DNA of 64,000 bases from a phage. Positions 13,029-16,806 of the stretch are shown piece after piece. Each line of letters starts with the position of its first letter. Position 1 is the stretch's first letter. The notes under the pieces are model-generated. The model searched no databases. It was not told the origin of the DNA and saw only the letters and a program-made list of their open reading frames with translations. A program made the translations under genes and the position numbers. The stretch lies in the sequence record NC_135729.1; one strand, given 5' to 3'.

Positions 13029-15107
13029 TTAAAAAGGCGTTTCATCATCCTCAAAACCAGGGACCGGGTCAGAGGATGGATCATCGTACTGGAGGTCTTC
13101 CTGCGTGTCAACAGGCTTAACAGTAGGAGTTACAACCTTATCAGCCACAACCTTGCCCATAGGTGTTTCTACAACTGCATGCTCCTGATCCTCAAACATA
13201 GCCTGAGGTCTCCAAACAACCTCCCCACCTTCTCCGTCTGTAAACATTTGCATTTCTTTGTCCCAGTACCAATTACTGGCATCATGGAACTTACCTGTGT
13301 GCGGGTCCATAACCAAAGTGTCAGCAATACCTAGAGTTTTTGCTGGACGGTTTTTAAGACCTACCAGACGGACACGTCCACGAGAACGATCCACCATTTC
13401 TTCGGCCTCGACACCTATGACTACCCAACTCAACTGTTCAAGCCCTGCCGATCCTCGCAAATTCTCTTTTCGCACAGGATACCAGAAAGGTAACGGGTTA
13501 CCATCCTTGTCCTTAGGAGGCACAATCTCTGTACGTTTGAGGTGAGCGATCACCAAGATAAACACGTTAAACTGCTTACAAAACGCAGCCAGCTGAGTCA
13601 TAGCCATGTCCAGTTCTTTTCGCTCATCCTTAACATTAAGCCCTGAAATTACCATGGACAGGTGATCCAGCACAATATAACGGCAATGGTACAGGCAAAC
13701 CATTTGCTTAAGCTTGGTAATCAACTCGTCCACCGGAATAGATCCGAAATGTTTGAACACTTTGATTTTTCCAGCTTTTGCCCATGATTGGTGAATCTCT
13801 GCGTGTTCTTGATCAGTTAAAAACTGGCTAGGATCTTCAACAAACTCTTTAACATCAAACCCTAACTGGTTTGCATACAAGGAGTTAATTGCTTCCTCTG
13901 GGTCCTCCTCAAGATGGATCATGCATAGACGATCATCCTCTTCATAGTCATCGGCCTTCGGGCATGTCGGGTCCATTAGGTATCTTGCAATACAGTGTTC
14001 CAGTTTTTTAGCCACGGTTGTTTTACCGCCGCCTGATGGACCTGTAAGCATTACGAGTGTCCCTTTGTGCAAGCCTTTTAGCATTTTTTGCAGTTTTGGG
14101 AACTCTGCACTGATATCTACCCCGTTGGAAGTCTTTTTCCGCAAAGACTCGATAGAGAAGTCTTCTAAATCCGACACAGCATCAGGCACATATTTAACAG
14201 GGTGCCGGAACATGTTGACAATATCTTCCAGCTTTTTAGCCTTCAGCATGTCTCGGATATCTTTTACACCGTCAGGGTCATTTACTTCACCAGGGTATTC
14301 TACGTGGTAAACGTTATCAGCCATCAAAAATGCTGCGATATTGTGCGTGGCCTCAACACCTTTAATGACGTGTTTTTGCTTCTCTACCTCGTTAGCTGCA
14401 TCGTTATCCATTGCCAGCACAACTGTTCCATAGCTACGGATAAACTTCTCATTGTTTGCAAAAGTATCTACTGCGTTTGCACATCCACAGTTAATTCCAA
14501 CAAAAGGCAGGCAGGGTTTTCCTGCCAAATCACCACCGTTGATAACTGCGTCGATCCCGTCCTGGACCTCTTTAGCCCACTGCTTCACCTTTGCCGGGGC
14601 TTTAGCGTTGGTGAGAATCCCTTTTACTTGTATCTGATATGCAGCCTGCCATGCTGCAATAACATCACCTTCTCCCTCACAAACGTTAATCTGCTTACGG
14701 TTGTTGGAAGATGCACACAGCTTTTGACCAAACATCTGGGAGTTGGCCTTTACGATGCCAACAACGGAGAAATGGCCCCTTTGCTCTTTAGGAATAGTCC
14801 AGTCACGCTTTTTGAAACCAGACAGATTTCCGTAGCGGTCGTAATATGGGAAATATGTTGCAGTGACTGTCACACCGTCTTCTTGGGACAATGCTGATCG
14901 CACACCAAAATATTGTGCAGCCATCAGACCGATATTTTGTTGTGGGACAGGGACAATTTTAGTATTTTCTAAAACAGTCTCTACAGTTTCAACTTCTTTT
15001 TCATCACGATAGTCTCGTTTCACACTTCCCCCACTTTTATACTTAGTTGCTTTCGGGTTTGGCTCACCGAAACGGTTGTATGCAGATGCCATAAATTTAC
15101 TTCCCAT
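13029..15107 (-). CDS. DNA primase-helicase (T7 gp4-like: TOPRIM primase + RecA-fold/DnaB-like helicase)
   Basis: TOPRIM-like VVLAMDNDAANE; Walker A MLTGPSGGGKTT; Walker B YIVLDHLS; 692 aa. Confidence 0.8.
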   Translation of the reverse strand: MGSKFMASAYNRFGEPNPKATKYKSGGSVKRDYRDEKEVETVETVLENTKIVPVPQQNIGLMAAQYFGVRSALSQEDGVTVTATYFPYYDRYGNLSGFKKRDWTIPKEQRGHFSVVGIVKANSQMFGQKLCASSNNRKQINVCEGEGDVIAAWQAAYQIQVKGILTNAKAPAKVKQWAKEVQDGIDAVINGGDLAGKPCLPFVGINCGCANAVDTFANNEKFIRSYGTVVLAMDNDAANEVEKQKHVIKGVEATHNIAAFLMADNVYHVEYPGEVNDPDGVKDIRDMLKAKKLEDIVNMFRHPVKYVPDAVSDLEDFSIESLRKKTSNGVDISAEFPKLQKMLKGLHKGTLVMLTGPSGGGKTTVAKKLEHCIARYLMDPTCPKADDYEEDDRLCMIHLEEDPEEAINSLYANQLGFDVKEFVEDPSQFLTDQEHAEIHQSWAKAGKIKVFKHFGSIPVDELITKLKQMVCLYHCRYIVLDHLSMVISGLNVKDERKELDMAMTQLAAFCKQFNVFILVIAHLKRTEIVPPKDKDGNPLPFWYPVRKENLRGSAGLEQLSWVVIGVEAEEMVDRSRGRVRLVGLKNRPAKTLGIADTLVMDPHTGKFHDASNWYWDKEMQMFTDGEGGEVVWRPQAMFEDQEHAVVETPMGKVVADKVVTPTVKPVDTQEDLQYDDPSSDPVPGFEDDETPF

Positions 15108-15861
15108 TAATTCTGCTCCTTACTACAGGCTCGTTTGCTAAGAATACGGCTTTTGCCCAGCCACGTGGTGTGAGGCTTCGGATCATCTTCGTTCTTGCAC
15201 TCTTTCCACCCAGCTTGGCGTGTTGCATGGAATACCCGCTAACCGCGTCAACTATTTGCGGGACAGGTTTTGTGGCCGGGATTATAAATCCATTACCTAT
15301 CCAGCCGCAAGTTATTTTTGGATAGGCATCACGTGGAGCTATAAATTCAGGAAACCAAGGGTTTACATCATCCTCCGGTAAATACCCGCCATAGTCAGAA
15401 GGATGAAAACGGTAATCAGGTTTGCGCCACAGTGTGGACATAACACCAACAGGATTCTCTACATGCCACGGGCAATCGTAAATCTCTCCCAGCTCTTCCG
15501 CAACCCGAGCATCCTTTACAGCATTAATTTGGATCATGGGGTCCTTAGCCAGCTTTTTCTTAAAATGTGCAGCACCTGATACCGCTAAATGCGTGCACGG
15601 AGGAAATGCAAGAATAAAGTCTGGGGCTGGGTACATGCAAAAAGTTTCCTGAGGGAACCATGGGTCAATCCAATAATCCACATAGTGGATGTTGGGATGA
15701 TCGGTTATCACCTCTGCATAACTGCCGTGATCAGCACCTTCTGCATTGAAGCATAGGCACAGGTACCCAGCTTTTGCCCAGTCAATGACTGCACCACCAG
15801 ACCCGTCAAATAGACTCCACACAACACCTTTGTGGTAGTGTTCTTTGTAGATAAATTTCAA
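15097..15861 (-). CDS. putative DNA (cytosine-5)-methyltransferase-like protein
   Basis: motif I SLFDGSGG (FxGxGG), motif IV AFPPCTHLAVSG (PC-T instead of canonical PCQ), motif VI VENPVG (ENV); short for a MTase (about 254 aa). The track start (GTG at 15891) lies inside the terminator hairpin; TTG at 15861 with an AGGAGA RBS 7 nt upstream preferred. Confidence 0.45.
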   Translation of the reverse strand: MKFIYKEHYHKGVVWSLFDGSGGAVIDWAKAGYLCLCFNAEGADHGSYAEVITDHPNIHYVDYWIDPWFPQETFCMYPAPDFILAFPPCTHLAVSGAAHFKKKLAKDPMIQINAVKDARVAEELGEIYDCPWHVENPVGVMSTLWRKPDYRFHPSDYGGYLPEDDVNPWFPEFIAPRDAYPKITCGWIGNGFIIPATKPVPQIVDAVSGYSMQHAKLGGKSARTKMIRSLTPRGWAKAVFLANEPVVRSRINGK

Positions 15862-15878
15862 TTTGCTGTCTCCTAATG

Positions 15879-15906
15879 CAAAAAGCCCCACCCTTTCGGG
15901 CAGGGC
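15879..15906 (-). terminator. rho-independent terminator
   Basis: minus-strand GCCCTGCCCGAAAGGGTGGGGC followed by CTTTTTGC; same hairpin as at 4269-4290. Confidence 0.6.
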
Positions 15907-15912
15907 CTAGTG

Positions 15913-16395
15913 TTAAACCCGGATACCTATTGTATACTCGGTGGATACCAATGTCAAATCTAAATTTAAAATTTCTTGCATCTCATAGTATGCGTCCAGG
16001 GTGAGATACATTTCCCCATCCTTTTCTACATACTTGTCCAAGTGCTTGAGGCATTTCGGATAACTATCGAGTGCAGCTTTCAGACACTCAAACTCTGTGC
16101 TGTTGATGAGTCCTTCCATCTTGGCTACCCGTTCTGGGGTAACGATAGCACTGTAGTGAGATTTAGCTTCCTGAATGCAATGGGTCCAAGCATCAACTTT
16201 CTCTTCGAAAAGTCCGAAGAATTTCTTTTTAGTGAGCTTCAGATTCTTTAAGTGCTTAAGCACTCGGTTGCCGATCACAGCCACATCACGAAACTTAAGG
16301 ATCACTTTGTCGATATCCTCGCGGCCTATTTTCACAAAGCAAGCCTCACACATTTCAGGAGCTGCGTAACCTACTTTCCACATAAAATCTGACAT
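15913..16395 (-). CDS. hypothetical protein
   Basis: 160-aa ORF; N-terminal WKVGYAAPEMCEAC motif shared with ORF 33311-33511. Confidence 0.4.
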   Translation of the reverse strand: MSDFMWKVGYAAPEMCEACFVKIGREDIDKVILKFRDVAVIGNRVLKHLKNLKLTKKKFFGLFEEKVDAWTHCIQEAKSHYSAIVTPERVAKMEGLINSTEFECLKAALDSYPKCLKHLDKYVEKDGEMYLTLDAYYEMQEILNLDLTLVSTEYTIGIRV

Positions 16396-16407
16396 AACAC
16401 TATCTCC

Positions 16408-16806
16408 TTATTCTTCCTGAAAAGCAACGATATCATATGAACTTGCAGACGATCCTGGTGAAGAATGACTCCAGTCTAGGTCATCAGAGTAGTCAGCGTA
16501 CTGTGCACCACTACGTAGTTTATATTTTACCCACTTACCTGGTGCAGGGTTTTCACCACCTTCCCATACTTCCCAGCCTTCTGGCAGGCCGTCCTGGGGA
16601 TAGTCATCCACCTCACTAATAATCTTAGGGTTTGGCACCAAGATCCCTGCAGGCTCTTCCTTACGGATAAGTGTCCACACAACGTAGGTGTCTGAGCAGG
16701 CGCATGATAGCAAAGTATATCCACTATTCAGAACTTCTGCAAGCTCTTTTTCAGCATCTTCCAATTTGGTTAAGTGGTATTGGATAACCTTCACACCTGT
16801 AATCAT
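16408..16806 (-). CDS. hypothetical protein
   Basis: 132-aa ORF. Confidence 0.4.
   Translation of the reverse strand: MITGVKVIQYHLTKLEDAEKELAEVLNSGYTLLSCACSDTYVVWTLIRKEEPAGILVPNPKIISEVDDYPQDGLPEGWEVWEGGENPAPGKWVKYKLRSGAQYADYSDDLDWSHSSPGSSASSYDIVAFQEE

Follow-up and report, generated by a model that had tools for sequence, protein, structure and literature searches.

The closest experimentally studied relative of the gene considered here comes from work on retron Ec86, in which escape mutants were isolated from phage K42, a phage 95% identical to the BASEL phage KarlJaspers (10.1101/2023.08.16.553469). In that work, expression of the K42 protein Dcm raised 5-methylcytosine (5mC) on the multicopy single-stranded DNA (msDNA) of Ec86, as detected by liquid chromatography-mass spectrometry, and triggers the retron, while a C82A/E128A/K175A/K176A mutant, in which K175 was changed as a substrate-binding residue, did not raise 5mC on the msDNA (10.1101/2023.08.16.553469). 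The gene analyzed here encodes a small protein of the same kind and lies on the minus strand of a 64,000-nucleotide stretch of phage DNA (NC_135729.1, hereafter the window), which represents an rV5-like Vequintavirus and matches E. coli O157 typing phage 14 at 99.6% identity across 3 kb. Its coding sequence (CDS) occupies positions 15097-15861 and, according to the list of open reading frames (ORFs) and their translation, specifies 254 amino acids from a TTG start to a TAA stop; KP869112, Mangalyan and MaxBurger place the CDS at the same coordinates. From the computational evidence detailed below, we consider it highly probable that this gene encodes an active S-adenosylmethionine (SAM)-dependent DNA cytosine-C5 methyltransferase belonging to a minimal (~210-260 aa) phage family. 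As such it is already known, being an annotated member of an abundant phage C5-cytosine methyltransferase family.

The link to the K42 enzyme is provided by gp55 of KarlJaspers (Bas06), encoded by 711 bp, which aligns with the window protein over 235 residues at 54% identity (E 2e-86). Residues C82, E128, K175 and K176 of the K42 numbering fall at the PPC, ENP and PKK positions of gp55, and the agreement in length, identity and residue positions places the enzyme tested in K42 within the same small phage methyltransferase family. An active C5-methyltransferase is thus the best explanation for the window gene as well. In the window protein the equivalent positions are C89, E135, K182 and Ile183. 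Both gp55 and the window protein carry PPCT, ENPV, PK-TC-W-GN and GGKS-RTK-IRSLTPRG, belong to the same length class and are encoded among replication genes; they differ in the loop that precedes GGKS, which reads GYSMQH in the window protein and DNPGW in the KarlJaspers/K42 type.

An earlier reading made from the letters alone (the sequence-only reading) had proposed a divergent DNA-modifying enzyme of the C5-methyltransferase type at this locus, a proposal that fold, motifs and family membership all support. The translation contains the three motifs it had listed, in the canonical order and within about 254 residues. The SAM-binding loop FDGSGG (motif I) follows strand 1 at residues 18-23 (15793-15810, minus strand) and corresponds in alignments to motif I of both DNMT3B and HaeIII; FPPCT (motif IV, residues 86-90, 15592-15606, minus strand) contains the putative catalytic Cys89, equivalent to C82 of K42 Dcm; and ENPVG (motif VI, residues 135-139, 15445-15459, minus strand) begins with Glu135, equivalent to E128 of K42 Dcm. 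In an alignment of 59 family sequences reaching down to ~31% identity, C89 and E135 were invariant (59/59), and P87, T90, N136, P137, K182 and T184, together with R228, S229, T231, P232 and G234 towards the C-terminus, were conserved at 90% or more.

Family searches extended this picture and, together with this conservation, show that the motifs did not arise by chance. The protein matched phrog_757, "DNA methyltransferase", over residues 2-251 (E 5e-87), and large protein collections yielded 3,555 homologues as well as 2,005 clusters defined at 50% identity, the proteins in nearly all of these being 210-260 aa long. Relatives were detected by tblastn in 1,505 phage records that include Vequintavirinae, T1-like Drexlerviridae and Klebsiella Webervirus, among others. 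A pattern search located the motif in 219 sequences, 199 of which have PPCT, and since the clusters nearly all share the short length, Thr90 and small size are hallmarks of the family rather than peculiarities of this gene. Likewise, the substitution of Thr for the Gln of the classical PCQ is real, but this Gln had been described as invariant, which does not hold for the superfamily because DNMT3B, aligned at this position, has PCN.

Structure comparison pointed in the same direction. An AlphaFold2 model built from the family alignment (predicted local distance difference test, pLDDT, 89.3; predicted template modeling score, pTM, 0.89) has the catalytic-domain fold of the C5-methyltransferase superfamily. 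When the model was compared with the Protein Data Bank (PDB) by Foldseek, the top 50 matches were all DNMT3A, DNMT3B or DNMT3C catalytic domains or the methylase of prophage CP-933R (E ~1e-6, template modeling score, TM, ~0.5), and the matches in BFVD were named phage cytosine methylases. At the sequence level, the matches to DNMT3B, DNMT3A and HaeIII obtained by searching PDB sequences with phmmer and with two profiles were weak and extended over motifs I-IV only. Comparison, for illustration only, of the 59-sequence profile by hhalign with an approximate sequence of the DNMT3A catalytic domain aligned motifs I-IV alone (E 2.7e-4), and with an approximate M.HhaI sequence it aligned motif IV alone, at a probability of 0.5%. 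In these alignments the Cys of FPPCT is placed on the PC of DNMT3A, DNMT3B, HaeIII and HhaI, the HhaI and hhalign DNMT3A sequences being approximate.

The relation to the well-described enzymes of the superfamily is nevertheless distant. The mammalian de novo enzymes DNMT3A and DNMT3B share 12-17% identity with the window protein, in a sequence alignment that covers only motifs I-IV, and DNMT3 catalytic domains are parts of large multidomain eukaryotic proteins that form oligomers with DNMT3L, in contrast to the small phage enzyme. With the classical bacterial type II enzymes M.HhaI and M.HaeIII and with E. coli Dcm the phage protein has in common the fold and the order of motifs I, IV and VI; it is ~70-220 residues shorter than these enzymes, has PCT in place of PCQ and shows no recognizable large target-recognition domain (TRD). 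It is not an orthologue of E. coli Dcm, the label "Dcm-like" notwithstanding.

For the C-terminal half, to which no residue-level alignment extends, two conserved stretches, PKxTC-W-GN and TPRG[FW]A-AV, are candidates for motifs VIII and X. The former reads PKITCGWIGN in the window protein (15292-15321, minus strand), and within it K182, T184 and W187 are invariant or nearly so in the family; as a candidate equivalent of motif VIII it resembles the DNMT3A sequence RARYFWGN, a likeness judged by eye rather than from an alignment. The latter corresponds to IRSLTPRGWAKAV (15145-15183, minus strand), a conserved C-terminal motif that opens the last helix (residues 233-251 in the AlphaFold2 model) and that is put forward as a candidate for motif IX/X. 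Its R233 is invariant among 26 closer relatives, and the stretch containing it may correspond to motif X.

Judging from other members of the superfamily, SAM would be bound in a pocket made up of the FDGSGG loop and the last helix, the target cytosine would be flipped out of the DNA and attacked at C6 by Cys89 of FPPCT, and Glu135 of ENPVG would protonate N3, the methyl group being delivered to C5. A short insert (residues ~150 to ~215) and the PKxTC-W-GN strand would replace the large target-recognition domain, as in DNMT3. The phage DNA would presumably be marked in this way against restriction, a plausible role that the sequence-only reading had raised. Following the K42 precedent, the enzyme could also betray the phage to methylation-sensing retrons. 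If it does methylate retron msDNA as K42 Dcm does, Vequintaviruses would be visible to defence of the Ec86 type, which would bear on the prediction of host range in phage therapy.

Several results weigh against this interpretation. Scans of the 254-aa protein with Pfam DNA_methylase (PF00145) and NCBIfam gave no match even at an E-value of 10, and the profile searches against PDB sequences were weak (E 0.16-0.4) and restricted to motifs I-IV; the classical QxRxR of motif VIII and GN(A/S)V of motif X are not visible in the protein. Moreover, the enzyme studied experimentally, in a preprint, is only 54% identical and has the loop of the other subgroup, the window protein has Ile183 at the position of K176 in K42 Dcm, and no 5mC or methylome data were found in the literature on Vequintavirus or rV5. 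The profile search that the sequence-only reading had proposed as a check thus gave a divided answer: Pfam and NCBIfam were silent for the protein itself, but the phrog_757 match is strong and 17 of the 26 relatives match PF00145 weakly (E up to 1), the best of them with an E-value of 1.3e-6. The retron papers on Bas51 were set aside as not relevant to this gene, as they concern the Dam adenine methyltransferase of that phage.

The sequence-only reading had also allowed for an inactive binder, and a DNA- or SAM-binding protein that has lost catalysis, or an RNA methyltransferase resembling Dnmt2, would account for a diverged motif IV and a missing Pfam match. Such an outcome is very improbable in our judgement, because the catalytic Cys, the Glu and motif I are kept throughout the family under strong constraint, PCT is the family norm and PPCT is found also in KarlJaspers, a relative of the active K42 enzyme, and the activity of K42 Dcm was abolished by mutating those residues (10.1101/2023.08.16.553469). 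DNA methyltransferases, moreover, outrank Dnmt2 in the structure comparison. A second departure from ordinary methylation would be the transfer of another group, for example carboxymethyl from the carboxy-SAM (Cx-SAM) made by E. coli CmoA, giving 5-carboxymethylcytosine or a further hypermodified base. In the phage enzyme CmoX, an Arg replacing the motif X Asn selects carboxy-SAM, in company with an SPPC motif and linked CmoA and CmoY genes, and E. coli CmoA can supply the cofactor (PMC12783734); in the small phage family the last helix begins with the conserved R233 (TPRG[FW]A). The homologue K42 Dcm, however, made 5mC (10.1101/2023.08.16.553469), and CmoX (PDB 8yf3) is a 333-aa protein with a full TRD (PMC12783734), unlike the 254-aa window protein. 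The window protein has FPPC where the CmoX signature has SPPC, and none of ten ORFs scanned around the gene (9.9 to 22.1 kb) resembled CmoA, CmoY, a ligase, ParB, a glycosyltransferase or another hypermodification-type gene, so that the hypermodification suggested earlier found no evidence in its favour. DNMT3A has an Arg in motif X (GRSW) and yet uses SAM. We accordingly give very little credence to transfer of a non-methyl group, and similarly little to its more specific form, in which the rV5-clade enzyme is no Dcm mimic and R233 might permit the use of carboxy-SAM, the base at a non-CCWGG site then becoming 5-carboxymethylcytosine or carrying some group other than methyl.

Within the preferred reading of the gene as an active C5-methyltransferase, a more serious question is its target. 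A CCWGG-specific mimic of Dcm, acting on the site of the host enzyme, would give protection of the EcoRII type and would trigger retron Ec86, and is compatible with that reading. Databases label the protein "Dcm-like", and the K42 preprint ascribes CCWGG specificity to the homologue; that assignment, however, was assumed from E. coli Dcm and backed by msDNA mutants only, without mapping, and the dcm+ MG1655 control had low 5mC on msDNA (10.1101/2023.08.16.553469). Site counts in 55 IMG/VR loci carrying family members separate the two loop subgroups. The 10 loci with the K42-type loop DNPGW are not depleted in CCWGG (observed/expected ratio, O/E, 1.10, range 0.92-1.28), and neither is KarlJaspers (1.03), as would be expected of phages that protect this site. 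The window protein sits in the other subgroup, GYSxQH, whose 22 loci have an O/E of 0.72 (range 0.03-1.26), lower than in the DNPGW loci (Mann-Whitney p 4e-4, uncorrected for relatedness and host); some of these GYSxQH loci are not depleted, while in others the ratio is as low as 0.03-0.25. In the window itself none of the 1,024 pentamers is more depleted than CCWGG, with 95 sites observed vs 155 expected (O/E 0.61, z -4.8); T1, which has no homologue, gave an O/E of 0.82. This contrast, which is indirect and heterogeneous, is consistent with CCWGG protection by the K42 type and hints at the marking of another site by the rV5 type. CCWGG remains for us a possible but doubtful target of the window protein. 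We put at roughly even the chances that the protein produces ordinary 5mC at a new site distinct from CCWGG, which it would recognize through a minimal module of ~60 residues. The label "Dcm-like" implies a CCWGG specificity that was never mapped, and the depletion of CCWGG in the phage argues for caution in its use.

Loss of CCWGG through deamination of 5mC was considered as a cause of the depletion and rejected as unsupported, since neither CTAGG (O/E 1.16) nor CTTGG (1.03), the resulting words, shows enrichment. Other words strongly depleted in the window are CTAG (O/E 0.48) and GTAC (0.55), with GATC only mildly so (0.87). CCWGG is nearly absent from seven IMG/VR environmental contigs with family members (L045, L047, L048, L051, L060, L077 and L080); examples of the counts in such contigs are 2 sites vs 36.6 expected, 1 vs 31.2 and 0 vs 10.4.

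Public records disagree about the start of the gene. The longest ORF at the locus (15097-15891, minus strand) begins with a GTG and encodes 264 aa, a version given in NC_022323, a RefSeq record, and in KC690136, as opposed to the 254-aa version with the TTG start in KP869112, OR449013 and MZ501093. This in-frame GTG (15891-15889, minus strand), which is probably not the true start, has no usable spacing to a ribosome-binding site (RBS) on inspection of the sequence and is located in the 3' arm of a hairpin, as the sequence-only reading had noticed. The hairpin (15883-15908, minus strand), identified by a terminator scan and by RNA folding, follows the upstream gene and resembles an intrinsic terminator, being GC-rich with a GAAA loop, 11 base pairs (7 of them G-C) and a run of five T's (15884-15880), the first two of which double as the last two pairs of the stem. 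The centroid fold of the 70-nt stretch has an energy of about -21 kcal/mol, with a modest z-score of -1.9 against shuffled sequences. The TTG codon (15861-15859) lies exactly 30 nt downstream of the GTG and is preceded, 8 nt before it, by the Shine-Dalgarno sequence AGGAG (15870-15874, minus strand), which is annotated as a ribosome-binding site in Mangalyan.

Comparison with orthologous loci favours the TTG, as do most public annotations. In an 80%-identical orthologue (L003) the start is the codon equivalent to the TTG, there a GTG that follows AGGAGG, and the locus has no hairpin. In two others that are ~80% identical (L005 and L031), the stem is kept through G-U to G-C and G-U to A-U changes while the internal GTG reads GCG, the start there being a downstream ATG; since these loci keep the stem and lose the codon, what has been conserved is the RNA structure of the hairpin, and not the GTG codon. 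Translation thus most likely starts at the TTG at 15861, judging from these sequence comparisons, in keeping with the preference expressed in the sequence-only reading for a TTG with a strong RBS, and the upstream hairpin is an RNA structure (a terminator or a 5' stem-loop) rather than coding sequence. The TTG start is accordingly preferable to the hairpin-embedded GTG found in several public records, one of them in RefSeq. The same reading had let the gene, which is real and for which it gave no strand (it is the minus strand), extend to 15912; this position falls outside the ORF and is the intergenic base just past the stop codon of the upstream gene (TAA, 15915-15913).

A promoter scan found a putative sigma-70-like promoter (TTGACA-17-TACAAT, 11/12) at 15929-15957 on the minus strand, within the terminal part of the upstream gene. 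L005 has the same two hexamers, although many neighbouring third codon positions differ there, and the predicted promoter points directly into the terminator-like hairpin. As a conserved predicted promoter precedes it, the hairpin may double as the 5' stem-loop of a methyltransferase-primase transcript.

The gene belongs to a minus-strand replication module ordered rIIA, rIIB, Dda-like helicase, four small ORFs, methyltransferase, primase/helicase, DNA polymerase and HNH. The end of the methyltransferase gene overlaps the beginning of the primase/helicase gene (13029-15107, minus strand, ATG start) by 11 nt (15097-15107), an overlap likewise annotated in relatives, and because of this overlap within the replication module the methyltransferase is probably made during phage DNA replication. 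The upstream gene (15913-16395, minus strand) encodes a 160-aa protein of unassigned function. A hypermodification cluster was rejected as a description of the region, its genes being rII, helicases, primase/helicase, polymerase, HNH and small unknown proteins. Two genes upstream, a 132-aa protein (16408-16806, minus strand) has a weak match over residues 5-51 (E 4.5e-7) to a PHROG labelled DNA ligase.

The methyltransferase segment is present at an identity of at least 90% in 117 phage records, whose labels vary from "hypothetical protein" and "DNA methyltransferase" to "putative C-5 cytosine DNA methylase" and "Dcm-like C5 cytosine methyltransferase". Near-identical genes have been deposited for more than 100 phages of the rV5 type, several already under the name cytosine methyltransferase, and one family member has experimental support. 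Of the 20 rV5-like records among the matches listed, about half carry no methylase name, mostly reading "hypothetical protein".

The organization of the orthologous locus in L005 (L005:3247-3764), whose methyltransferase is ~79% identical, is different. There, two small inserted genes, one DUF723 and one T5orf172/MUG113, separate the methyltransferase from the primase/helicase; these genes have GIY-YIG-like domains of the homing-endonuclease type, and a PIF1-type helicase nearby shows intein and LAGLIDADG matches. With two homing-endonuclease-type genes at this position in L005, the methyltransferase-primase junction is an insertion site for mobile elements elsewhere. Similar methyltransferase domains are also found fused inside very large phage proteins in BFVD, A0A6J5SE15 (1,397 aa) and A0A6J5NPY6 (1,126 aa), with 23-26% identity and E-values of 1e-9 to 1e-11, one of these proteins being annotated with a helicase/UvrB N-terminal domain.

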